Positions 27-36,518 of a DNA stretch of 64,000 nt are shown one piece after another; the first letter of the stretch is position 1, and every line of letters starts with the position of its first letter. This stretch comes from Candidatus Saccharimonadales bacterium (GTDB lineage: Bacteria; Patescibacteriota; Saccharimonadia; Saccharimonadales; EFPC-124). The notes below the pieces were generated by a model, which saw only the letters and a list, made by a program, of their open reading frames with translations, was not told where the DNA came from and did no database searches. Where the stretch lies: positions 13,827 to 77,826 of the forward strand of contig JBOHNX010000001.1 in the NCBI GenBank assembly GCA_050730875.1. The letters are read 5' to 3'. The position numbers were made by a program, and so were the translations under genes.

Positions 27-1076
27 ATGATACGTAAACTTATGAAACGAGACAGTACCAAACGTCCGGAAACGGGCGGGCGGATTACCAACGAAACAGT
101 GGCGGAACATCGCGAACGTATTCTTGCGGGCGGACGTAAATTTAAATACCCTATGCAGTATACGAAGCGAAGAATCGTCATTATAAGTATTCTTATTGTG
201 CTTTTGTCTACAGCAGGTTTCTTTTTGTTTAGTGGTTGGCAGCTTTACAGCGTTCAAAACACAAGTAAATTCATGTTCGGGCTCACACAGATTCTCCCAG
301 CTCCCGTAGCAAAGGTAGAGGGTCAGTGGGTACGCTATAGCGATTACTTATTAGAGCTTCGAAGTTCGTTACACTATCTTGTGACAAAAGAGGCTATTAA
401 CTTTAATTCCGACGACGGCAAGCGCCAGCTTGAATACCAGAAGCGACTGGCTCTTAATAAGGCCATCGAGAATGCATATTTGACTAAAATTGCCCGTGAT
501 CAAAAGATTCGCGTAGACACTAAAGAAGTTGACGATTTTGTCCGCATTCAGATTAATTCCAATCGTCTGGGCGTGAATGAAGACCTATATAAGCAGGTCA
601 TCCGTGATTACTACGACTGGTCATTCGAGGAGTATAAGACGTCAATTAAAAAGCAGTTGCTGCGTAAAAAAGTCCAAGCCAAATTAGATACGGATGCACG
701 CCAAAAGATCACGGCTATTCGCGACCAATTACGTCAGGGGGCAGATTTTGCGGAAGTTGCCAAAACCCAATCTGAAGACGAAGCAACCAAGCAACAAGGG
801 GGTGACATCGGAATCGTGACAAAGGATGCCGATGATCCGCACGGTCTTATTGCCGCTGCCAATAACCTACAGCCAAGCCAGGTTTCAGATGCAATTGAAG
901 GCGTCGATGGCTTCTACATAGTGAAGCTTATTGAACGCCAGGGCGAGAACGAACTACGCCTTGCAAAGATATTTATCGCCTACAAATATCTCGATAAAAA
1001 GATATCCGAGCTTAAGCAAGCCGGGCAAATCCAAGAGTTTATTAAAGTCGATGACGCGGTTCGGCCCGCGACTTAA
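27..1076 (+). CDS. Membrane-anchored PpiC/parvulin-type peptidyl-prolyl isomerase (PrsA/SurA-like)
   Basis: 349-aa ORF. Has an N-terminal TM helix (IVIISILIVLLSTAGFFLF) and a C-terminal parvulin-like segment (GGDIGIVTKD...GFYIVKLIERQ). Assigned by motif recognition only. Confidence 0.7.
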   Translation: MIRKLMKRDSTKRPETGGRITNETVAEHRERILAGGRKFKYPMQYTKRRIVIISILIVLLSTAGFFLFSGWQLYSVQNTSKFMFGLTQILPAPVAKVEGQWVRYSDYLLELRSSLHYLVTKEAINFNSDDGKRQLEYQKRLALNKAIENAYLTKIARDQKIRVDTKEVDDFVRIQINSNRLGVNEDLYKQVIRDYYDWSFEEYKTSIKKQLLRKKVQAKLDTDARQKITAIRDQLRQGADFAEVAKTQSEDEATKQQGGDIGIVTKDADDPHGLIAAANNLQPSQVSDAIEGVDGFYIVKLIERQGENELRLAKIFIAYKYLDKKISELKQAGQIQEFIKVDDAVRPAT

Positions 1077-9836: not shown

Positions 9837-9920
9837 TAATTTGTCTCTGATTACAATGGAACATTCTACTTTGTTTCATCTGTTACGTCAAGATTGGTTA
9901 AATATTGGTATACTATGTGA

Positions 9921-10562
9921 ATGATGAATATAGATCTGACGTACTTATTGATCGTTTTAGGGTCAATTTTAATCTCGATGACCCTGCACGAGGCCATGCA
10001 TGCTTTTGCGAGTTACTGGCTAGGGGATGACACTGCAAAGGCGCTTGGTAGGCTAACGATTAACCCGATTGCGCATATTGACCCCTTCACGACTGTATTG
10101 TTGCCTCTGATGCTTGCAGCAATTGGAGCACCGCCGTTTGGTGCCGCTAAGCCCGTGCCTTTTAATCCGTACCGTTTACGATACGGCGAATATGGGTCAG
10201 CGATCGTGGGTGCCGCTGGACCACTGACTAACCTGGCATTAGCAATCCTCGCCGGGCTGGTAATTCGTCTTTTTGGTGCCGAACTTGATGGCGGTCTCTT
10301 AGTGGCACTTGGAACGTTTACACTTGTTAACTTGGCGTTCTTCATATTTAATATGATTCCTTTCCCGCCGCTAGATGGTTCGCGGGTGCTTTACGCATTT
10401 GCGCCTGACGGTGTACGGCGTGTTATGGAGCGCATAGAGTCTATGGGTTTTGCGGCAATAATCTTCTTTATGTTAATCTTCTTCGCCGTTCTTAGCGAGC
10501 CATTTGTTCGTGTGTTACAAGGCGCTTTAGCTCTCATTACGGGTGGCTACGTTACATTTTAG
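9921..10562 (+). CDS. Site-2 protease family (peptidase M50) membrane metalloprotease
   Basis: HEAMHAF (HExxH) lies within the first TM region. The protein has multiple TM helices and a PPLDG motif. Confidence 0.8.
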   Translation: MMNIDLTYLLIVLGSILISMTLHEAMHAFASYWLGDDTAKALGRLTINPIAHIDPFTTVLLPLMLAAIGAPPFGAAKPVPFNPYRLRYGEYGSAIVGAAGPLTNLALAILAGLVIRLFGAELDGGLLVALGTFTLVNLAFFIFNMIPFPPLDGSRVLYAFAPDGVRRVMERIESMGFAAIIFFMLIFFAVLSEPFVRVLQGALALITGGYVTF

Positions 10563-13610: not shown

Positions 13611-14020
13611 GGTTGTCAGACTACTAGACGATCGCTTAGCCTTAGGGCTAAGAGGAAAGTCCGGGCAGCATAGGACAAGGCAGTTGTTAACCGCAACCGG
13701 GGGCGACCCTAGGGAAAGTGTCACAGAAACGAAACCGCCTTCACTAGTGAGGGTAAGGATGAAACGAGTGGGCCCAGCTCGTCTGGGATAGGTCTCTTTC
13801 TGCGAGAGCTTAAGAGACTGAAGGTAAGAGCCCACAGCGTGTCATGGTGACATGACACGGAGGTAAACCCTGCCTGCTGCAAGGAGGTCTGTTTTCCACC
13901 CTAAAGGTGGTAGTGGTTCCACTAAATAGACCGCATGAACCGCTTGACTACGACGGGCAACCGTCTAGCTAGATAGATGATCGTCCTGGACAGAACCCGG
14001 CTTACCGGTAGTCTGACATC
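13611..14020 (+). ncRNA. rnpB: RNase P RNA, bacterial type A
   Basis: Conserved GAGGAAAGTCCGGGC and ACAGAACCCGGCTTAC are present. The terminal P1 pairs GTTGTCAGACTAC with GTAGTCTGACATC. Confidence 0.9.
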
Positions 14021-14021
14021 T

Positions 14022-14052
14022 AAAAAACACCGCTATTTTTGCGGTGTTTTTT
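14022..14052. terminator. Bidirectional terminator (rnpB / rplT)
   Basis: AAAAAACACCGC-TATTTT-TGCGGTGTTTTTT. Confidence 0.75.
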
Positions 14053-14067
14053 AGTGCATTTTGGCTT

Positions 14068-14409
14068 TTATTTAGCGCTTTTAACTACTTCTGCGAAAAC
14101 CTTAGGCTCGTTTGCTGCTAGCTCTGCTAGAATTTTGCGATCGAGTTCAATGTTAGCCTTCTTGAGGCCAGCGATTAGCTTGGCGTATGTAGTGCCGTTT
14201 TCGCGGGCAGCAGCGTTGATGCGGGTGATCCAGGTCTCACGGAAATCACGTTTCTTGTTGCGACGGTCACGGTATGCGTACTGCAAAGCACGAATAACAG
14301 CTTGTTTAGCTAAGCGGTACGAACGGCGACGAGCCGCTTGCATGCCTTTGGCAAGCTGTAAAATCTTCTTGTGTTTGCGTCGGGCGGCGACGCCTCGTTT
14401 GATTCTCAT
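14068..14409 (-). CDS. rplT: 50S ribosomal protein L20
   Basis: 113-aa ORF reading [22 protein letters not shown]. Confidence 0.95.
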
Positions 14410-14413
14410 TCTT

Positions 14414-14608
14414 CTAAACTCCTAGTGCACGCTTTAGATTTCGCGCAACAGATCCTTTAATACTAGCTTCGGTGGAAATAACGCGCTTGCGACTTGCGCT
14501 TTTCTTCTCGAGCAAGTGCGTGCCGTTACTACGACGGCGGATGAGCTTGCCGCCAGCGCTGATTTTAATGCGCTTCGCGGTGCCCTGATGTGTTTTGAGC
14601 TTTGGCAT
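14414..14608 (-). CDS. rpmI: 50S ribosomal protein L35
   Basis: 64-aa ORF reading [26 protein letters not shown]. Confidence 0.95.
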
Positions 14609-15116
14609 TTGCAGTACTCCTTAAAACGATACCTAAATTCTTACCAGCCATAATTGGCTTTTGTTCGACTACAGCGACATCTTGTAGCTTTTCGACGATT
14701 CTATCGAGCAGTTTGTAGCCAAGTTCTTGGTGAGCCATCTCGCGTCCTCGGAAGAAAGCCATGACTTTAACTCGGTGGCCAGCTTCGAGGAACTCGCGGA
14801 TTTTGCGCAACTTTATGTCTAAGTCGTGCGCGCCTATCTTGAGTCCCATGCGCATTTGCTTTATTTCGACGGCCTTGGCTTGTCGTCGGCTTCGCTGTTG
14901 CTCCTTAGTCTTCTGGTAGAGGAATTTACCCCAGTCAACAATCCGCGCAACTGGTGGATTGGCTTGTGGCGAAATTTCTACCAGATCGAGACCAGCTCGC
15001 TCTGCTTCTAAAAGTGCCTGCGCCCGTGACAGGATACCGATCTGATTCCCATCAGGACCAATGACGCGCAGTTCTGAAGCGTGAATCGCTTCATTAATCC
15101 GCACTGCTTTACTAAT
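14565..15116 (-). CDS. infC: Translation initiation factor IF-3, predicted ATT start
   Basis: IF-3 sequence (RINEAIHASELRVIGPDG...). AAAGGAG followed by 8 nt then an in-frame ATT at 15116, the classic infC AUU start. The 3' end overlaps rpmI by 44 nt. Confidence 0.88.
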   Translation of the reverse strand: MSKAVRINEAIHASELRVIGPDGNQIGILSRAQALLEAERAGLDLVEISPQANPPVARIVDWGKFLYQKTKEQQRSRRQAKAVEIKQMRMGLKIGAHDLDIKLRKIREFLEAGHRVKVMAFFRGREMAHQELGYKLLDRIVEKLQDVAVVEQKPIMAGKNLGIVLRSTANAKAQNTSGHREAH

Positions 15117-15193
15117 AGAACTTGCTCCTTTGTCGTTGTCGCATTTTAGCCTATGTTTTCGAAGAGCAATTGTAGCAGAGGTGAGCTCTGATT

Positions 15194-16711
15194 TCAACTG
15201 GTAAGTTGTATTCTCGGTCGGTATTGCAGTGCTTCTGAAATATGTTGAGTCTCCGTGGTGGTGGAACCTTCGAGATCTGCAATAGTCCGCGCGACCTTGA
15301 TCACCTTAAAATAACCCCTTGCTGACAGCTGTAGATTTGTTGCGGCACGGTCGAGAAGTTGTTTCGCAGCCGGCTCTAAATTAACCACTGCTTGTATATC
15401 TCTGTTTGTAAGATGCGCATTGGTTTTTTCTGATTTTCCAAACCGCGCTCTTTGTGTGTCGCGCGCGGTTAAAATATTGCGTTGGACATCTTGTGCCTGT
15501 GATGGGCCTTTATGTGAGCGAAGGAGCCTGTCTGCATCGACTCGAGACACTTCAACTATCATATCGATACGGTCCAATAGCGGACCTGATACTTTCTTTT
15601 GGTACTGCATAATTTGGTGGGCGCTGCAGGTGCATTCGCGGCTGGGGTCAGTCGCATAACCGCAAGGACAGGGATTTTGAGTGGCTATAAGCATAAAGTC
15701 GGCAGGGTAGGAGACGCGATCATTAGCTCGAACAATATGAACTCGCTTATCTTCAAGCGGTTGGCGCAGCGCTTCAAGCGCCTGGCGAGAGTATTCAGGT
15801 AGCTCATCCAAAAACAGGACACCTCTGTGCGCTAAGCTAACTTCGCCAGGGCGAGGCACCCGGCCACCTCCAATAAGGGCAATGTGGCTTGCGCTATGGT
15901 GGGGTGAGCGGAATGGTCTGCTCGCAAGTACCTCCTCGTAGCATTCACCCGCAAGGCTGTGTAGCTTGGTTACTTCAATAATTTCTTCCCGAGACAATGG
16001 CGGCAGTATAGAGGTCAATGCTTTCGCGAGCATAGTCTTACCAGCGCCAGGCGGGCCATTGAATAGAATATTATGGTGACCCGCCGCGGCGATAACGAGC
16101 GCGCGTTTCGCTTGCTCTTGGCCTTGAACGTCGTCCAAATCGATGCTGGACGCACTTGCGCGTACTGTAATGGTCGGTGCATTTTGCGGTTGGATGGGAG
16201 CAGCATTGTTGAGGTGTAAATATATATCACGTAGTGTGTGGGCAGTAAGCACTGTTACGCCCTCTACCAATTGGGCCTGAGCGAGATTGGCCTCAGGTAC
16301 AATAATGGTTGCTATGTTGTGCTGCCGGGCTGTTTGTGCGTGATTGATGACACCTTTTATCGGCCGAAGCGTGCCATCTAACGCGAGTTCACCTACAACA
16401 AGAACATCATCAAGTGATTTTTGCGGCAGTTGTCCACTCGTGACCAGAAGTGCCAGTGCAATAGGGAGGTCAAAATGGGCTCCATCTTTGGGAAGATTGG
16501 CCGGAGCGAGATTGACAGTGAGGCGCTTTCTGGGAAATTCCAAACCGCTATTCTTTATGGCGCTGCGCACACGTTCTTTTGCTTCGTCGATTGCTTTATT
16601 GCCAAGCCCAACTATTAGGAGTCCGGGCAAACCATTGCTAGCATCGCATTCTACCTCGATGAGCTCACCCTCAAACCCGATACTAGTCGCAGAAAATACA
16701 CACGCCGTCAT
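15194..16711 (-). CDS. comM: YifB/ComM-family Mg-chelatase-like ATPase
   Basis: 505-aa ORF. N-terminal Lon-like domain, Walker A GPPGAGKT, and a C-terminal ChlI-like region. Confidence 0.88.
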   Translation of the reverse strand: MTACVFSATSIGFEGELIEVECDASNGLPGLLIVGLGNKAIDEAKERVRSAIKNSGLEFPRKRLTVNLAPANLPKDGAHFDLPIALALLVTSGQLPQKSLDDVLVVGELALDGTLRPIKGVINHAQTARQHNIATIIVPEANLAQAQLVEGVTVLTAHTLRDIYLHLNNAAPIQPQNAPTITVRASASSIDLDDVQGQEQAKRALVIAAAGHHNILFNGPPGAGKTMLAKALTSILPPLSREEIIEVTKLHSLAGECYEEVLASRPFRSPHHSASHIALIGGGRVPRPGEVSLAHRGVLFLDELPEYSRQALEALRQPLEDKRVHIVRANDRVSYPADFMLIATQNPCPCGYATDPSRECTCSAHQIMQYQKKVSGPLLDRIDMIVEVSRVDADRLLRSHKGPSQAQDVQRNILTARDTQRARFGKSEKTNAHLTNRDIQAVVNLEPAAKQLLDRAATNLQLSARGYFKVIKVARTIADLEGSTTTETQHISEALQYRPRIQLTS

Positions 16712-16772
16712 AAACCTTGACTATTATGGCACCCTTACCCTATAAGCTCAAGCATGGTATAATAATCTGGCT

Positions 16773-17149
16773 GGGGCTGAAATAGCTTCGACGATGGACC
16801 TTTACATGTTATCTGGCAAGCCGGTCGCGCATATCGTTACAGTGCGCACCATTTAAGTGTAAAAACTTTTGTACAGCGAGTAGCTGACGCATTCCGCGTT
16901 CCTACTTTCGCACCAGCTGTAGCTTAATTGCGACAGCCGTCATCCATTTAGTGTCAGTCTAAATGGCGTGATGTTATTTACTGACTTGGATTTGTGTGCC
17001 CAGGCGAGCATGCACTTCGACATTTATCGCCAACCTCCCGCAACCTTTTGTGCATTTCGAGTCACGGGAGTTCTACTAAATGTACTAAGCTTGTAGAAGG
17101 ATAGTGTGTAACCCACCGGACCGGGGTGCGATACCCCGCAGCTCCACCA
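16773..17149 (+). ncRNA. ssrA: tmRNA
   Basis: The 5' end GGGGCTG pairs with the 3' end CAGCTCC-ACCA, including G3:U70. T-arm is GGACCGGGGTGCGATACCCCGC. The in-frame tag ends ...ADAFRVPTFAPAVA-TAA; the resume codon is uncertain. Confidence 0.9.
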
Positions 17150-17154
17150 AATTA

Positions 17155-17187
17155 AATACCCCAACTTCACGGTTGGGGTATTTTTTT
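17155..17187 (+). terminator. tmRNA terminator
   Basis: AATACCCCAAC-TTCAC-GGTTGGGGTATT followed by T7. A second hairpin plus T-run follows at about 17213-17260. Confidence 0.8.
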
Positions 17188-18193
17188 GGCAGTATTTGTC
17201 TCAGCAATCAAAAACAACGGCCTGCGAGAAGCCGTTGTTCGTTTTTTTGCGTTTTTTGTTTTTGAGCACTTTTTTTATTCAAGTGCTACCCCTATAATAG
17301 TGTCCTGCTCAGGCAGTGTCAACAACTATTTTAGCTATGTGCAAAAAGTGTGGAAAACTTAAGCAGTATGTGTAAACGGCGCTTAGTCGTGTATCGTAAA
17401 TATTTTTTTTGCGGAATAACAAAACTACGCGGCGAAACATACGTACTGCTGCGCGTTAATGGCGACGTGCTTACTGGTTTAACATACCTGGATCGCTGGT
17501 AATTGCACTTGCATAGACGGCCTGCGCTTTCGTTCTGTGTACAATGCTATTTGCAATTACGCGGTGGTGCAATCGAAACAAAATAATTTATAAATCCGCG
17601 ATAATTTTCTGATTAGCCAAGCCGTGCCCTCGTGGACCATAAAAGAAAGACAATTTTGAATGCGGATGCACACGCTACGTTTACGTGCGCCAGTCGCACG
17701 TGTAATTTTAGAAATCTTGCAAATTTACACAAAGCTGGTTGTAGCGCGGTCGAAATGTCATGTCCGAAATGTGGATTCTAATGAAATTTCCAGCTGCTTT
17801 TTGTGTTCGAAAAATCACACCTGGAATGAGTGACTTGGCAAAAGAATGGTGGGTTGTTCCAGACGCCGGCAAATAAAACGGACTATTTTTATTGAGCATG
17901 TTGTTATCGCAATCGCAGCTTTTAGTTTGCCGCTATGTTCGAAATACGTAGTTACGGGGGATAGGACCAGGAAAAGGAGGCGAAGAGAAGACACTTTGTT
18001 GTTACTATAATAACGATAAATATGACATTTATCGCTGTATATATGACATCTTTACAGATCATAGTAGTGTTTATAACTACGAATAATCAACAAAATCTAT
18101 TGACCTACGCGCTTATGTTTGCTAAGGTGAGGGCAAGCTTTTGAAACAAATACCCAAAACAAAAATCGAAGGCTTGCACCTTTCTGGCGCCGG

Positions 18194-18278
18194 GATTTGG
18201 CGAACAACTTGGCAACTAAACCCATTAGTTGTCGTGACTTCGCCAAATCGACGTGCGCTACGTACGTTGTTTGGCGAA
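18194..18278 (+). promoter_or_regulatory. Leader with mutually exclusive helices upstream of the 18431 operon
   Basis: TTCGCCAAATC (18239-49) can pair with GATTTGGCGAA (18194-204, 11 bp). Alternatively it can pair with TTTGGCGAA (18270-78, 9 bp). A 10-bp hairpin follows, pairing 18319-28 with 18361-70. Confidence 0.35.
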
Positions 18279-18430
18279 TGCTAAACGACAATTCGTTCCC
18301 CCTTATGGGGTCGCCACGAGAGCGAGAAGCGCTACTTAAGTCTTACAAAGTTGAGCGGATTTCTCGCTCTGTGGCATATTTCTTTTTACGGCTATATTCT
18401 TTGCCTAAATCTTAGTACAGTAGGTGGTGT

Positions 18431-18832
18431 ATGGAAGAGTCTAAGCGTTTTGTACAGCGGTTAAGAGTGCCGGCACTCTATTTGTTACCGCTGTTTCTTT
18501 TTTTAATTATCATGCTTGTTTTAAACCTGACGAGCCCTCTTCAGGCAGGCCCAGCCGGCATATTGCTGGTGTTCGGGCTTTTTTATTTGTTTGCATGTAG
18601 CTTGTTTTATATAGCAACGCACATAGTCTTTAAAGTGTGGCGACTGGTTAAGGGCGTATCGCCCGCTCTGGAGCGCCGCACGTACTATCTGGTGAGTGTT
18701 ATTGCGCTGGGACCGATTTTTCTCATAGCGCTTAATACGCTTGGCGAGCTAAATATTCGAGAAGTTATACTCGTTAGCCTCTTAGTTGCCATTGGCTGCT
18801 TCTATGTACTGAAGCGAACTCGCATAGAATGA
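18431..18832 (+). CDS. Integral membrane protein (4 TM), unknown function
   Basis: 133-aa hydrophobic ORF. AGGTGG lies upstream of the ATG. Confidence 0.6.
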   Translation: MEESKRFVQRLRVPALYLLPLFLFLIIMLVLNLTSPLQAGPAGILLVFGLFYLFACSLFYIATHIVFKVWRLVKGVSPALERRTYYLVSVIALGPIFLIALNTLGELNIREVILVSLLVAIGCFYVLKRTRIE

Positions 18833-18881
18833 CGTATATCCGTTTTTTGGCATAAGCCTTGTGGTACAATTTAGCTTAGTT

Positions 18882-19295
18882 ATGGAGCCTAAATTGCCAA
18901 CACCAAACCCTTCTCCCGAGATGGGTCACTACCATCGGCCGGAATTGCCCGCAGCGCCCGAGAAGCCTGTAAGTAATACCCCCGAGCAACAACCTCACGC
19001 AGAGACGCATGAGGGGGGTACTCAGGCTGCGCAAAGCGGACCAGCGTTACCCGCACCGCAAGCGCCCAGCGCACCGCAAGCGGCAAGTCCGGTAACGCAG
19101 CAGTCGACTACCGATAACACTCCGTTGAGTGCTGCCGACGACGAAGTAATAGAAAAAGAATGGGTCGAAAAAGCTAAGGATATAGTTAATCAAACAAAGT
19201 CGGATCCATACGCTCAGGAAAAAGAGGTTAGCAAACTCCAAGCCGACTATATTAAGAAGCGATACGGGAAAGAAATTAAGCTAGTTAGCGACTGA
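18882..19295 (+). CDS. Pro/Gln/Ala-rich protein with a conserved-looking charged C-terminal domain
   Basis: The ORF track gives 18861-19295; ATG at 18882 is the preferred start. The N-terminal half is low-complexity. The C-terminus reads EKEWVEKAKDIVNQTKSDPYAQEKEVSKLQADYIKKRYG. Confidence 0.5.
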   Translation: MEPKLPTPNPSPEMGHYHRPELPAAPEKPVSNTPEQQPHAETHEGGTQAAQSGPALPAPQAPSAPQAASPVTQQSTTDNTPLSAADDEVIEKEWVEKAKDIVNQTKSDPYAQEKEVSKLQADYIKKRYGKEIKLVSD

Positions 19296-19299
19296 CGAC

Positions 19300-22200
19300 A
19301 TGACAAATTTGCTGATAGGTTTCATCATTGGTACAACCTTTCTGCTCCTCTTTCTGTATGTTGGCTATTGGCAGTATCGTAAGGTATTGCGCGAAGCAAA
19401 GAACTACGAGCGTGGACTTAAAATGGTCCCGCTGCTTATTCATCTGCCTCCCTCGAGCGACGACATTGAGGCAGGGGGTCGGGATGCGCGAGATATTGCC
19501 GAGGAAGCTATTTCTCAGGCGCAGACCATGTATAACATTATCTCGAGTACGGCCACCAAGGGCTTTAAGAGCAAACTGTACGGCCAGCGTCACCTCGCGT
19601 TCGAGATTGTCGCAAGCAGAGGGCTTATCCATTATTACGTCGTCGTGCCACTGGTTCTGCTCGATGTTATTAGGCAGGCGGTTATAGCCGCGTACCCCAC
19701 TGCCAGATTAGAAGAGTGTGAAGAGCACAACATTTTTAGTCCAGTTGGAAAAATTAGTGGGACAATTGGTGGTGAGCTTACGTTGAGGAAAGAATTTAGC
19801 TTCCCGATCGCAACCTACCAAGAGACGAAACGCGATGCAATGCAGGCAATATTGAATGCTCTTTCGACCCTAACAAAAGAAGACGGGGCTGCAGTCCAGA
19901 TTTTGCTAAGGCCGGCCCACGAAAAATGGACAAAAACTTCGCTGGCTAGAGCAGGCAAGATACGAAAGGATAAAGGTGTTAAGTCGGGGGTGGCGAGTGT
20001 GCTTTCCATGAAAGACCTAGCGGAGGCGCTTTGGAAGCCGCCGGAGACGAAAGATGTCAAACCTGAAGATAAACAACTAAGTTCACTAGAGCAAGCAATT
20101 GTTGATGCTGTCGAAGATAAAACCAGGTATCCTGGTTACGAGATACTTATACGCATTATAGCCTCATCGAATACTGCGGTGCGTTCACAGGCTATCCTAA
20201 AGAACATCGTTGCAGCTTTTTCTCTCTTTGATTCACCAAGCAAAAATGGTTTTAAATTCTCGCTCGCAAAAAATGTTGAGCAATTCGCTACTTCATTTAT
20301 ATTTCGTTTCTTTCCCCAGGAAATATCACAGAGCGTTTTGAACAGTGTAGAACTTGCAACAATATTCCATTTTCCAGACCAACGCAACACGCCTACCTCA
20401 CAGGTTCAGCGACAAGCGTCCAAGCAGGTTGATGGGCCGTCGCAAATGCTCGATCAGGGCGTGTTGTTTGGATACAACCTGTTCCGGGGTGTAAAGAAAG
20501 AGATACGTCTAGGTGATACCGACCGACGCAGACATGTCTACATAATTGGTCAGACAGGAACTGGTAAATCAGGTCTTTTGGAGAACCTCGCCTTGCAAGA
20601 CATGCTGGATGGCAAAGGCTTTGCCTTTGTTGATCCGCATGGTGATTCCGCCGAACGCCTGTTGGGCATGGTGCCAAAAGAGCGGGTAGAGGATGTCATT
20701 TACTTTTCTCCTGGTGATATGGATCACCCCATGGGGCTGAACCTATTTGAGTACAAGACACCTGACCAGCGCGACTTTTTGGTTCAGGAAGCTATTGCGA
20801 TGCTGTATCGGCTTTACGACCCTGGCCATACGGGCATCATAGGGCCACGCTATGAAAACTGGTTTCGTAATGCCGCATTAACAATCATGAGTGACCCGGC
20901 TGGAACAAGCTTTATTGATGTACCACAAGTATTCAATGACAATGACTTTGCGAAAGAAAAGCTCAAACACGTCACCAACCAGGTCGTGCTCGATTTTTGG
21001 AACAAAGAAATGGCACAGACTAGCGACTATCATAAGTCAGAGGTACTTGGCTGGTTTGTGAGCAAGTTCGGTGCATTTTTGTCCAATGACATGATGCGCA
21101 ACATTATTGGGCAAACAAAATCTTCATTTGACCTCCGAGAGATAATGGATAACAAGAAGATACTGCTAGTGAATCTGTCCAAGGGTAAGACAGGCGAATT
21201 AAATAGCCAGCTTTTGGGTATGATTTTTGTAATGAAATTCCAAGTTGCTGCTATGAGCCGCTCTGATATTCCCGAAGAGGAGCGAGTTGACTTCAGCTTA
21301 TACGTTGATGAGTTCCAGAACTTTGCGACCGAATCATTCGAAACGATTCTATCTGAGGCACGAAAGTATCGTCTGAGCTTGATCTTGGCTAACCAGTTCA
21401 TGACGCAGCTTAGTGACAAGATCCGGGAAGCAGTTATCGGTAACGTCGGTACAGTTATTTCTGGGCGAATAGGCACGACAGACGCAGAGCTGATGGCAAA
21501 ACGTTTTACGCCTACATTTGACGCAGAAGATCTCACGAAACTGCCAAACTTTGAGACGGTTGCTACGGTTATGATCAACAATGTGCCCTCTGCGCCGTTT
21601 AGCATGTCCCTAATACCACCTTTGGGTAAACCTAACCCACAGCTCGCAACTGCCCTTAAACGCTTGTCGTACGCGAAGTACGGGCGTCCACGCGCAAATG
21701 TTGAGCGGGATATATTTAAACGTCTTCGCGCAGGTGATGATGCACGTTCAGCACGCCAGGGTGCATTAAAGCGCCCATCGGACACTCAAACATCTACGGG
21801 GTCATCTTTCCTAGATGAATGGCTGGCAAAGCGCAAACAGCAGACGGCTACGGCCGCACCACCAAAACAGGCGCCAAAACCGCGGACTACCAGTCCTCAA
21901 ACTCCATCAACAGATGCGCAGAAGCCACTCGTTATGCAATCTGAGCCCACCAAAGCTGATGAGACTCCTCAACCAACACAACCGCAAACGCCACCACCAC
22001 ACAAACCTCTGTATGCAGATCTTCGATTAAAACGGCTCCAGGAACAGGGGATAGGAGGCAACGTTGCTTTTAACCAGCCATCGCAGCACAAAGCACCGAG
22101 CGTGCATGATTCGACAATGCTTGAAGAGGCGCTTGCAAGCACGGCCTCTAGTGACGTCATGAAGGATGAGCAAACGAAGCGTCAGGCAGAACCAGGCGAG

Positions 22201-22338
22201 CTGCAAGTGACGAAGGATAGTACGTCACAGAATGGTTCAACGAACGGCGTAGATGAGATTTATATTGATGTGCGGGGCAAACTACATCATAAGGACGAGG
22301 CGGATGATCAAAATAAACCGCAAACGCCGGTAAGCTAA
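19300..22338 (+). CDS. TraD/TraG/VirD4-like (type IV coupling protein-like) membrane ATPase with a long disordered tail
   Basis: 1012-aa ORF with these elements:
- N-terminal TM helix
- roughly 350-aa unknown domain ending ELATIFHFP
- Walker A GQTGTGKSG and Walker B-like LYVDEFQNF
- ARKYRLSLILANQ
- C-terminal P/Q/T-rich region of about 230 aa. Confidence 0.65.
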   Translation: MTNLLIGFIIGTTFLLLFLYVGYWQYRKVLREAKNYERGLKMVPLLIHLPPSSDDIEAGGRDARDIAEEAISQAQTMYNIISSTATKGFKSKLYGQRHLAFEIVASRGLIHYYVVVPLVLLDVIRQAVIAAYPTARLEECEEHNIFSPVGKISGTIGGELTLRKEFSFPIATYQETKRDAMQAILNALSTLTKEDGAAVQILLRPAHEKWTKTSLARAGKIRKDKGVKSGVASVLSMKDLAEALWKPPETKDVKPEDKQLSSLEQAIVDAVEDKTRYPGYEILIRIIASSNTAVRSQAILKNIVAAFSLFDSPSKNGFKFSLAKNVEQFATSFIFRFFPQEISQSVLNSVELATIFHFPDQRNTPTSQVQRQASKQVDGPSQMLDQGVLFGYNLFRGVKKEIRLGDTDRRRHVYIIGQTGTGKSGLLENLALQDMLDGKGFAFVDPHGDSAERLLGMVPKERVEDVIYFSPGDMDHPMGLNLFEYKTPDQRDFLVQEAIAMLYRLYDPGHTGIIGPRYENWFRNAALTIMSDPAGTSFIDVPQVFNDNDFAKEKLKHVTNQVVLDFWNKEMAQTSDYHKSEVLGWFVSKFGAFLSNDMMRNIIGQTKSSFDLREIMDNKKILLVNLSKGKTGELNSQLLGMIFVMKFQVAAMSRSDIPEEERVDFSLYVDEFQNFATESFETILSEARKYRLSLILANQFMTQLSDKIREAVIGNVGTVISGRIGTTDAELMAKRFTPTFDAEDLTKLPNFETVATVMINNVPSAPFSMSLIPPLGKPNPQLATALKRLSYAKYGRPRANVERDIFKRLRAGDDARSARQGALKRPSDTQTSTGSSFLDEWLAKRKQQTATAAPPKQAPKPRTTSPQTPSTDAQKPLVMQSEPTKADETPQPTQPQTPPPHKPLYADLRLKRLQEQGIGGNVAFNQPSQHKAPSVHDSTMLEEALASTASSDVMKDEQTKRQAEPGELQVTKDSTSQNGSTNGVDEIYIDVRGKLHHKDEADDQNKPQTPVS

Positions 22339-35788: not shown

Positions 35789-35817
35789 TTGACAAAAAGC
35801 ATAAACATTGCTATAGT
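35789..35817 (+). promoter_or_regulatory. Promoter of the KGG stress-protein gene
   Basis: TTGACA, 17-nt spacer, TATAGT. Confidence 0.6.
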
Positions 35818-35850
35818 AATATCATTCACATAATGTGAGAGGAGAATAAT

Positions 35851-36045
35851 ATGGCAGGAACTAAAGCAGGCGGCCAAAAGGCTGCTCTGACAAACAAGTC
35901 GCGTCATGGTAAAGACTTTTATGCACGCATTGGTGCAAATGGTGGCCGCAAAGGTACAACTGGTGGCTTTGCCGCAAACCGCGAGCTTGCTCGCGCTGCT
36001 GGCCGCAAAGGTGGTATGATTAGCCGCCGCACCAAAAAAGCTTAA
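35851..36045 (+). CDS. KGG-repeat general stress protein (YciG/GsiB-like)
   Basis: 64-aa ORF with repeated GG-K/R-KG segments (GANGGRKGTTGGFAANRELARAAGRKGG). Confidence 0.65.
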   Translation: MAGTKAGGQKAALTNKSRHGKDFYARIGANGGRKGTTGGFAANRELARAAGRKGGMISRRTKKA

Positions 36046-36518
36046 AGACGAGTCCGTTTTAAGCGACAAAACAAGGCATCGTTTACATGCCACAAACACC
36101 TACAGTTAATACACCTGTAGGTGTTTGTTTTTGTTTGGAGCCCGTTCTGCTTACATTTGGGGCAGGTGCTGCGTTCGTGAAGCCAGCCACGGTATGTGTC
36201 GAGCTGGTCCTGGATGTAATTATCATCCATCGCAAGGTCGTAGCGTTTTGCGAGCGTCTTGGCTGCGTAGTGCCAGGCTTCGGTTTCGCACCTTAGAAGC
36301 TGTATATCGTGTTCGTAACCTTGGTGGTCCAATTCACCGTGAGCAATTTCGTGTAGTAAGGTCCAGATCTGTTTTTCATCGGTTAGCGGCAAGTGGGTTA
36401 TTGTGCGGTTTTGGGGTGACCAACGGAAAAGCTCACCTTCCTCAAAGACATAGGCTTCAAAGTCATTCTTAATGCGTTCAACTAGTTTGCTGATGTGTAG
36501 CATAGTAGTAGCAGCCAT
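36042..36518 (-). CDS. Putative HExxH zinc metallopeptidase-like protein with a C-terminal Zn-ribbon
   Basis: Contains LLHEIAHGELDH and CPKC...CINCRC. It shows a 4-nt convergent overlap with the KGG gene and overlaps the ROK gene end. Confidence 0.45.
   Translation of the reverse strand: MAATTMLHISKLVERIKNDFEAYVFEEGELFRWSPQNRTITHLPLTDEKQIWTLLHEIAHGELDHQGYEHDIQLLRCETEAWHYAAKTLAKRYDLAMDDNYIQDQLDTYRGWLHERSTCPKCKQNGLQTKTNTYRCINCRCLWHVNDALFCRLKRTRL

Follow-up and report, generated by a model that had tools for sequence, protein, structure and literature searches.

Gene content of the tract downstream of the tmRNA gene

The 64,000-nt stretch of DNA analysed here, hereafter the window, comes from a Candidatus Saccharimonadales bacterium (assembly GCA_050730875.1, contig JBOHNX010000001.1, positions 13,827 to 77,826). 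Our subject is the tract that begins directly downstream of the transfer-messenger RNA (tmRNA) gene and ends at the start codon of a gene for a 133-aa membrane protein, and in particular two conserved elements at its ends, A on the tmRNA side and B on the membrane-protein side. In a greedy map of the whole window, built from long open reading frames (ORFs) and RNA genes, positions 17150-18430 are free of features. At 1281 nt, this is the window's largest gap; the next measures 440 nt and the median is 50 nt. On the other side of the tmRNA gene, a gene for a ComM-like protein occupies 15194-16711 on the minus strand; downstream of the membrane-protein gene come genes for a 144-aa protein and a VirD4/TraG-like coupling protein.

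A first-pass annotation had described the tract as gene-free and had offered a decayed mobile element, large or multiple non-coding RNAs, or a regulatory or replication-related region as explanations. The description itself is borne out: there is no ORF of more than 72 codons between the tmRNA gene and the ATG at 18431, and none of the ten tract ORFs tested has a Pfam match. In the public gene call for an assembly encoding an identical 133-aa protein, no gene is called in the corresponding gap. Furthermore, ORFs of relatives resemble the window DNA solely downstream of 18431, and thus neither Pfam nor comparison with relatives reveals the short, homology-supported protein genes that the annotation had named as a result that would overturn its reading.

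For comparison, 80 loci were fetched with the ComM-like protein as query, all from metagenome-assembled genomes (MAGs) of Candidatus Saccharibacteria / Saccharimonadales; the top identity to the window's ComM-like protein among them is only 67%. The 133-aa protein is identical to the Candidatus Saccharimonadales MAG protein ACREGJ_00225, and the next homologue is 50% identical. Closer relatives, sought in order to judge selection on the middle of the tract, were not found in the collections searched. The window lineage thus has no close sequenced relative, and all of the comparisons below span long distances.

Some 60 species-level genomes share the order ComM, tmRNA, A, gap, membrane protein, 144-aa protein, coupling protein, and in most of the 80 loci the tmRNA gene is on the strand opposite to ComM. 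The ORF-poor interval from the conserved element on the tmRNA side to the membrane-protein gene measures 850-1340 nt in most genomes, and in many relatives it has no ORF of 60 codons or more. At both ends of the tract, nucleotide conservation exceeds the amino-acid conservation of the neighbouring proteins. Alignment with syntenic relatives therefore does not show the poor conservation that the first-pass annotation had associated with junk or a scar. A and B recur at the same place in all examined relatives whose contig covers the stretch.

Element A, a predicted small RNA convergent with the tmRNA gene

Comparison of the tract with the fetched loci by blastn reveals an island, 17206-17362, that is present in nearly all of them at 68-86% nucleotide identity. 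It contains element A, on the minus strand, whose putative promoter matches the consensus at 11 of 12 positions. Both promoter hexamers and the AGGGGT that follows the -10 box are conserved in ~55 aligned loci, and the 17-nt spacer between the hexamers is free to vary. Given the -10 box at 17294-17299, transcription is expected to start at about A17287, so that AGGGGT is probably a promoter discriminator and not part of the RNA.

RNAalifold recovers two hairpins in A, joined by an A-rich linker whose length varies among relatives. The sides of the first hairpin co-vary (e.g. GCACTT/AAGTGC, GCTTCTG/CAGAAGC and GTCCTTG/CAAGGGC), and so does the stem of the second (CGGC/GCCG, CCGC/GCGG, CCAC/GTGG and GCAC/GTGC), whose loop, CUCGCAG, is fixed and which is followed by a U-run. 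A covariance model of A built from 34 sequences has its sole window match at 17208-17293 on the minus strand (79.2 bits), and a single match per locus in 75 of 81 sources. In the alignment of A, 98.7% of the cells are paired, and compensatory changes are seen in 13 of 20 pairs; in the first hairpin, 5 of 8 pairs covary. Two controls were used for A and B, namely: 500 shuffles and slid pairing partners. For A, none of the 500 shuffles was as good, and the slid partners were 41-55% paired. The strand is fixed by the frequent G-U pairs, with UG in 72/72 and 31/72 sequences at two positions. In the window, A has a minimum free energy (MFE) of -23.4 kcal/mol and a z-score of -4.4.

From these features, A would be a small RNA of ~80-105 nt that begins with a hairpin, continues through an unpaired A-rich linker and ends in an intrinsic terminator with an unvarying 7-nt loop. 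It might act by base-pairing or by protein binding, through the linker and the invariant loop.

The first-pass annotation had noted two consecutive terminators beyond the tmRNA gene, and both exist: a perfect hairpin with 12-nt arms and a 6-nt loop (17154-17183) and a 9-bp perfect hairpin (17213-17239), each with a T-run. The second, however, does not belong to the tmRNA gene; it is the terminator of A on the opposite strand, tail to tail with that of the tmRNA. Alternatively, A might be no functional RNA at all but a leftover: either a former ComM leader, or a promoter and a two-way terminator that shields the convergent tmRNA gene. The hairpin of A and its T-runs are able to terminate both ways, the tmRNA terminator is 20 nt away, and in seven loci ComM follows A directly, with no intervening tmRNA gene. 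However, a plain terminator requires neither an invariant CUCGCAG loop nor a covarying first hairpin (5 of 8 pairs). In addition, the promoter of A, AGGGGT and parts of the linker are conserved although the ComM proteins are only 55-67% identical, and A is retained with or without a tmRNA gene between it and ComM. We consider it improbable that A lacks a function as RNA.

Two other identities for A were tried and rejected. As a tiny peptide gene (UUG/CUG-AAU-AAA...), it would have non-standard start codons, variable stops and inconsistent frames across the invariant loop; the lengths of the linker indels are not multiples of three and relatives differ in their frame across the loop, which argues that A is not a peptide gene. 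As a mimic of the tRNA-Ala/tmRNA acceptor stem, A would pair a 5' GGGGU with ACUCC-AC, with a G3-U70-like wobble. This was rejected because the GGGGT sits after the -10 box but ahead of the expected start and is probably promoter DNA, and because ACUCCAC is missing in the window and in the loci labelled L001 and L003.

The seven loci with A next to ComM form a clade (L002, L004, L013, L020, L029, L034 and L039, at ~9860-9970 in locus coordinates) in which A lies ~30-50 nt upstream of the ComM start and has GATAGTGG instead of AGGGGTAG after the -10 box. Rfam finds no tmRNA gene in the fetched locus of L029; the tmRNA gene of this clade must be elsewhere in the genome.

Element B, a predicted structured RNA upstream of the membrane-protein gene

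In an all-versus-all comparison of the gaps, conservation is confined to a block of 450-520 nt at the membrane-protein end. With two nhmmer rounds, the block is detected in ~60 loci, and the window matches at 17993-18269 (E 2e-23). The clusters of ORFs inside B fall on both strands and in several frames, which indicates conserved DNA and not coding sequence.

The TTGACC-17-TAAGGT promoter listed by the first-pass annotation is found at 18100-18128 and is conserved across relatives as the promoter of B. Element B starts from this TTGACC-17-TGCTAAGGT promoter, with a TG extension at 18120-18121. The most conserved upstream columns in ~60 loci are TTGAC and TGnTA, and the consensus is TTGAC(C/A/T), ~17 nt, TG-N-TA-NNN-T. 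The ATATGACAT repeat, also reported earlier, is present upstream of the promoter (18017-18028 and 18038-18049); together with an overlapping palindrome, it may represent operator sites.

B is 250-420 nt long among relatives and has a common layout. The 5' part consists of the hairpin AAGCUUUU...AAAAGC with an A-rich loop, followed by unpaired (GC)ACCUU. Next comes P2, a two-part long helix (UUUGACGG...CGGUAACG / CGUUACCG...CCGCCAAA), and then variable hairpins. The 3' part has the hairpin GCUCC/GGAGC and a near-invariant GGUCAGU, and B ends in an irregular long hairpin, GCCUG-C-AGCGGCAGG ... CUGUCGCU-CGGGC, that surrounds CGCY...RGCG-GAU and precedes a U-rich stretch. The invariant unpaired motifs are GCACCUU, GGUCAGU and GCGGAU. 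Each part of this layout has a counterpart in the window (Table 1), where GGUCAGU is incomplete.

A covariance model of the 3' domain of B gives a single match per locus in 66 sources, always at the same position, and ~25 of these loci were outside model building. In the window, whose copy was in the training set, the match is at 18283-18383 (37.4 bits, E 4.6e-8). For this domain, 93.2% of the cells are paired and 17 of 22 pairs show compensatory changes, with 0/500 shuffles as good and slid controls at 34-52%. P2 was assessed on a plain MAFFT alignment that was not fitted to the structure: 88.8% of the cells are paired, 17 of 18 pairs are compensatory and, again, no shuffle out of 500 was as good. 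Over all of the tests on A and B, slid controls are 28-55% paired, compared to 89-99% observed. The predicted 257-nt RNA of the window has an MFE of -99.4 kcal/mol (z -7.2). Thus, in both elements base pairs are kept by compensatory changes beyond the controls, which is the generic mark of structured non-coding RNA.

A and B share CAAAAACAAAAA near their predicted 5' ends, at 17253-17264 (minus strand) and 18154-18165 (plus strand), and it is conserved in relatives too. With up to one mismatch, there are 5 matches in the window against 1.3 expected; the remaining ones are at 36122 (in the tail of a terminator), 46604 and 57381. That both elements carry the motif may, speculatively, hint at a common protein partner.

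The possibility that B is a signal recognition particle (SRP) RNA or a 6S RNA missed by Rfam was rejected, since inspection revealed neither a GNRA-capped helix-8-like motif nor a rod-with-bubble shape, and there is no Rfam signal. A metagenome scan with the pattern GAGCGGTCAGT-N(0-9)-GCC was too unspecific; the model of the 3' domain matched 2 of the 80 loci fetched in this way. The only clear new copy of the domain among these metagenome loci is at 206-327 (minus strand) of L116, from the 110-kb contig Ga0207702_10000079 (37.2 bits).

Table 1. Features of the tract and its borders, in window coordinates
Feature	Position	Strand	Evidence or remarks
tmRNA gene	16773-17149	+	Left border of the tract; full-length match to Rfam RF00023 (93.7 bits)
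tmRNA intrinsic terminator	17154-17189	+	AAATACCCCAAC / GTTGGGGTATTT, then T-run
Element A, predicted small RNA, ~83 nt	17205-17287	-	Covariance-model match; 5' end inferred from promoter
A, U-tail	17205-17211	-	Sequence
A, terminator hairpin with family-invariant loop CUCGCAG	17212-17240	-	Alignment, RNAalifold
A, A-rich linker containing CAAAAACAAAAA	17241-17264	-	Alignment
A, 5' hairpin	17265-17287	-	Alignment, RNAalifold
Conserved AGGGGT between -10 box and predicted start of A	17288-17293	-	Alignment
Element A promoter	17288-17322	-	-35 TTGACA 17317-17322; 17-nt variable spacer; -10 TATTAT 17294-17299
Variable spacer	17323-17992	.	670 nt, not conserved; holds CGAAATGT repeat, ACGTGCG hairpin, AT-rich patch
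Moderately conserved region upstream of B promoter	17993-18099	+	107 nt; nhmmer profile match begins at 17993
Palindrome CGATAAAT / ATTTATCG	18014-18021 / 18027-18034	+	Perfect, 8 bp; read from sequence
Direct repeat ATATGACAT	18017-18028 and 18038-18049	+	Repeat search
Element B promoter	18100-18128	+	-35 TTGACC 18100-18105; 17-nt spacer; extended -10 TG-C-TAAGGT 18120-18128
Element B, predicted structured RNA, ~250 nt	18135-18387	+	nhmmer, 3'-domain covariance model, covariation, fold energy; ends predicted
B, helix P1 with A-rich loop	18136-18144 / 18166-18174	+	Conserved helix
B, conserved unpaired GCACCUUU	~18176-18183	+	Alignment
B, long helix P2 with inner hairpin, GAUUUGGCGAA / UUCGCCAAAUC	18194-18204 / 18239-18249	+	Covariation
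B, hairpin CCCC/GGGG	18299-18310	+	Conserved hairpin
B, terminal long hairpin GCCAC-G-AGAGCGAGAA / TTCTCGCTCT-GTGGC (RNA: UUCUCGCUCU-GUGGC)	18313-18328 / 18361-18375	+	Encloses CGCT...AGCG-GAT
B, U-rich tail	18377-18387	+	Sequence
Junction of B and membrane-protein gene	18388-18430	+	Shine-Dalgarno AGGTGG 18422-18427; weak promoter-like GTGGCA-16-TATATT 18371-18398
Membrane protein, 133 aa, four helices	18431-18832	+	Synteny in ~60 loci; right border of the tract
144-aa protein	18861-19295	+	Downstream of membrane-protein gene
VirD4/TraG-like coupling protein	19300-22338	+	Pfam T4SS-DNA_transf and TraG-D_C

Element B as a stand-alone RNA or as a leader

In 66 of 66 loci, B directly precedes the membrane-protein gene and points the same way, with a median of only 38 nt between its terminal helix and the start codon. 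B could therefore be a long structured 5' leader of the operon for the membrane, 144-aa and coupling proteins, in which the terminal hairpin and U-tract serve as an attenuator in the manner of a riboswitch or T-box; a ligand, protein or RNA that binds the upstream domain would then govern read-through. The hairpin-plus-U-tract design suits an expression platform, and the gene in the window has a Shine-Dalgarno sequence and only weak promoter-like matches in front of it. Like riboswitch and T-box attenuation leaders, B ends in a hairpin and a U-tract just upstream of a co-oriented gene.

However, at least 30 relatives, among them L046, L063, L060, L050, L023 and ~25 others, have a clear extended -10 promoter, TG-N-TATAGT (TGGTATAGT, TGATATAGT, TGATATAAT and similar), between the terminal hairpin of B and the start codon of the membrane-protein gene. 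The helix ends 15-26 nt ahead of this promoter and the ATG follows 6-12 nt after it; a Shine-Dalgarno sequence is absent, which implies leaderless or near-leaderless mRNAs in the Saccharibacteria lineage. The attenuator reading, first suggested by the short distance from helix to start, was set aside after these promoters were found. Furthermore, the loops and inner helices of the supposed terminator are themselves conserved, which is unusual for a mere expression platform, and by-eye inspection found no conserved antiterminator pairing; an alternative pairing, GAGCGG/UCGCUC, was seen by eye in some clades and is missing in L009 and in the window. No known riboswitch or leader family in Rfam matches. 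B thus differs from the known leaders in that it fits no known aptamer or T-box family, its terminal hairpin is long with a conserved interior, and the downstream gene has its own promoter in many relatives.

A separate promoter of the membrane-protein gene in many relatives makes it more likely that B is a stand-alone RNA. At least six T residues are found within 10 nt past the B helix in 40 of 66 loci. On balance we favour a stand-alone RNA with reasonable confidence and take a leader to be unlikely, although read-through from the B promoter may matter for the membrane-protein gene in the window lineage.

The spacer between the elements

The 670 nt between A and B behave differently from the two elements. 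In blastn searches, this spacer shows no similarity to any of ~60 homologous gaps, even where the B elements align at >200 bits. It is AT-rich relative to B, its length among relatives ranges from 500 to 1060 nt, and its fold z-score of -0.24 corresponds to no excess folding energy. It appears to evolve neutrally, with no sign of function.

Several of the features that the first-pass annotation had listed are located here. The CGAAATGT repeat exists in two copies, as described, but two copies of an 8-mer are at chance level. The ACGTGCG/CGCACGT hairpin (~17682-17702) and the AT-rich patch (17577-17620) are likewise real, but both sit in unconserved spacer and have no support beyond chance.

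In some lineages, the slot between A and B holds intact, mutually unrelated genes, and the interval therefore appears to be a recurrent site of insertion or gene turnover. The slot genes encode a ~220-aa protein that is DUF218-like by eye (L008, L031 and L040), a ~250-aa protein (L047, L073 and L079) and, also by eye, a HIT-like protein (L025, L026 and L041), a peptidase-like protein (L070) and a 337-aa transposase-like ORF (L004). By tblastn, none of the relatives' slot genes resembles the window spacer.

tmRNA genes are known integration hot spots, and the tract could thus be a decayed mobile element or a lost gene beside the tmRNA gene. The unconserved spacer without structure signal and the unrelated genes in the slot of other lineages are in keeping with this. 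The tract also shares with tmRNA-integrated genomic islands its position immediately past the tmRNA gene and, in relatives, a part with variable gene content. However, it has neither the duplicated tmRNA 3' end nor the integrase nor the mobile-element similarity of such islands: the final 20 nt of the tmRNA gene are found at a single place in the window, even with 3 mismatches allowed, no integrase and no Pfam match are found among the ten tract ORFs tested, and blastn against 50,697 phage and 72,556 plasmid records gives no match, nor is there tblastn similarity to the relatives' slot genes. Moreover, element A stands between the slot and the tmRNA gene, so that the slot, which lies beyond A, does not represent an insertion at that gene. 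As an account of the whole tract, this origin is very unlikely; at most, it explains the spacer, and not A or B.

A replication origin, or another DnaA-controlled region, in the tract is more doubtful still, to the point of being barely credible. The several DnaA-box-like 9-mers seen earlier are reduced to one near-consensus box at one mismatch or fewer (TTTTCCACA, 17349-17357), which, with the AT-rich patch, is what speaks for an origin. Against it, the window as a whole has 8 such boxes compared to 12 expected by chance, and the box in the tract sits in an unconserved part. GC skew is positive on both sides of the tract and cumulative skew climbs steadily over all 64 kb. Finally, neither dnaA nor dnaN is found among the translated ORFs of at least 100 aa in the region screened, 10-26 kb.

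Separately, six loci contain 1-1.8 kb of extra DNA between the tmRNA gene and A, namely: L003 (7800-9540), L022 (8500-9550), L008, L031, L040 and L044. This DNA is a second variable slot and could comprise true insertions beside the tmRNA gene.

Neighbouring genes

Pfam assigns no family to the 133-aa membrane protein or to the 144-aa protein. The AlphaFold model of the membrane protein consists of four helices (pLDDT 80), and a fold search of the PDB with this model gives no match and hence no functional hint. VirD4/TraG-type coupling proteins of Patescibacteria are usually encoded apart from virB4. In S. epibionticum, the coupling protein is dispensable for epibiotic growth (PMC12102498).

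ARAGORN missed the tmRNA gene of the window and called a tmRNA in just 15 of 80 loci, while the Rfam tmRNA model is positive in the window and in 5 of the 6 loci scanned. The RNase P RNA and tmRNA genes of the window (13616-17149, both on the plus strand) lie no more than 3.5 kb apart and, with A and B, make four RNA loci in ~5 kb; RNase P RNA is found at the equivalent position in all six relatives scanned. Elsewhere in the window, just past the 5S rRNA gene (35790-36050), a strong promoter-like TTGACA...TATAGT accompanies an ORF of ~64 codons rich in KGG-like repeats (MAGTKAGGQKAA...), which recalls small general-stress proteins.

Discussion

Taken together, these results make it likely that the tract is a conserved non-coding RNA locus of Saccharibacteria with two separate RNA genes. 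Both elements are conserved, occur in one copy per locus at a fixed position, have conserved promoters and show covariation. Of the explanations that the first-pass annotation had proposed, large or multiple non-coding RNAs thus agrees with what is found, i.e. two conserved structured elements with their own promoters. A replication-related region does not, in view of DnaA boxes that are not enriched and a GC skew that is positive over the whole window; nor does a decayed mobile element for the tract as a whole, which has no tmRNA 3' repeat and no phage, plasmid or protein-fragment similarity and for which this explanation is possible only in the 670-nt spacer. In the arrangement that we favour, A and B would be transcribed away from each other, each from a sigma-70-type promoter, with a neutral spacer between them. 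B would be a stand-alone RNA of ~250-420 nt, probably with a protein partner, and may have a functional connection to the three-protein module beside it (membrane protein, 144-aa protein and VirD4-like coupling protein). Transcription of the elements, the start and end points of the transcripts and their roles are all inferred from sequence.

Several points weigh against this reading of the locus. The ends of both transcripts are predicted from promoter and terminator consensus alone. The window copies of A and B are the most diverged: that of A lacks the ACUCCAC motif found in most relatives, and that of B lacks a full GGUCAGU and scores only 37 bits. The covariation in the second hairpin of A could mean a terminator only. 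Since the relatives are linked by descent, the shuffle controls exaggerate significance. With respect to B, the window shows a Shine-Dalgarno sequence but no convincing separate promoter in front of the membrane-protein gene, and termination may be poor in the largest clade, where B is followed by a weak U-tract (UUGUUUCAAU). In addition, since the whole neighbourhood is syntenic, the adjacency of B and the membrane-protein gene says little about a functional link between them.

A and B are, by the Rfam release and the literature searched, so far undescribed. We used Rfam 15 (4227 models, including OLE, ROOL, GOLLD, raiA, 6S, SRP RNA, T-box and riboswitches). At the gathering threshold, the only match in the window that concerns the tract is the adjoining tmRNA, and nothing is found in the gap of six relatives. 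The known large RNAs against which the first-pass annotation had suggested a check (OLE, GOLLD, ROOL and raiA) are thus not among the matches to the tract, as is the case for every other family. With E up to 10, the region 17100-18500 gives terminator-like chance matches only, the top one at 21.9 bits compared to cut-offs of 39-100, and with E up to 1, elements A and B of L046 give one chance match (20.8 bits, cut-off 100). In full-text literature searches, we found no description of non-coding RNAs of Saccharibacteria or Patescibacteria beyond the standard ones; the papers found on Saccharibacteria biology concern proteins.

The genomes of Saccharibacteria and of other members of the candidate phyla radiation are tiny and dense, and a gene-free kilobase that is retained in them demands explanation. 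A 1-kb non-coding interval with two RNA elements in ~60 species-level genomes suggests that important RNA functions are still unannotated in Saccharibacteria. In bacteria, it is rare to find a structured RNA a few hundred nucleotides in length whose function is unknown, and those that have been solved are ribozymes, ribonucleoprotein scaffolds or regulators. The A and B families are ready for annotation pipelines, and they are testable since a few Saccharibacteria are culturable and genetically tractable. A more general lesson is that the largest gap of a compact genome is a good hunting ground for RNA genes.

As a long shot, B might represent a new, Saccharibacteria-specific class of large structured RNA that forms a functional ribonucleoprotein together with the adjacent membrane protein and the orphan VirD4-like coupling protein, with A as its small-RNA partner or regulator; both elements carry the motif CAAAAACAAA close to the 5' end. 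If so, B would form an RNA particle at the membrane comparable to OLE, or serve a secretion ATPase as its RNA substrate or cofactor. It would then have been retained in ~1 Mb genomes for its ribonucleoprotein role, which would be relevant to the epibiotic lifestyle.

Among known systems, A has exactly the layout of classic trans-acting small RNAs, i.e. a 5' stem-loop, an unpaired seed and an intrinsic terminator, plus a strong promoter of its own. Its linker, rich in A and (A-A-N)-like, recalls sites bound by RNA chaperones such as Hfq. It differs from these RNAs in being most conserved in the terminator loop and not in the linker, and in a conservation that spans a class-level lineage, far wider than is usual for them.

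For B, one parallel is OLE of Firmicutes, a large, highly structured and lineage-wide non-coding RNA of unknown chemistry that is encoded beside the gene for a small multi-pass membrane protein, OapA. B likewise lies directly upstream of a conserved four-helix membrane protein in every locus, a resemblance based on adjacency only. Unlike OLE, B has no match to the Rfam OLE model, is shorter (250-420 nt compared to ~600 nt) and belongs to a different phylum, and, unlike OapA, its neighbouring membrane protein has no Pfam family or fold match. A partnership of RNA and protein is, in the case of B, pure conjecture from their adjacency alone.

The second parallel is with the raiA-motif, ROOL and GOLLD RNAs. 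B is set apart from these by its lack of an Rfam match, its occurrence in other taxa, its strictly fixed, single-copy chromosomal position and the absence of a phage association. Like them, however, it is a conserved multi-helix RNA with invariant unpaired nucleotides, its own promoter and no known function, and like them it was discovered through the comparison of intergenic regions.

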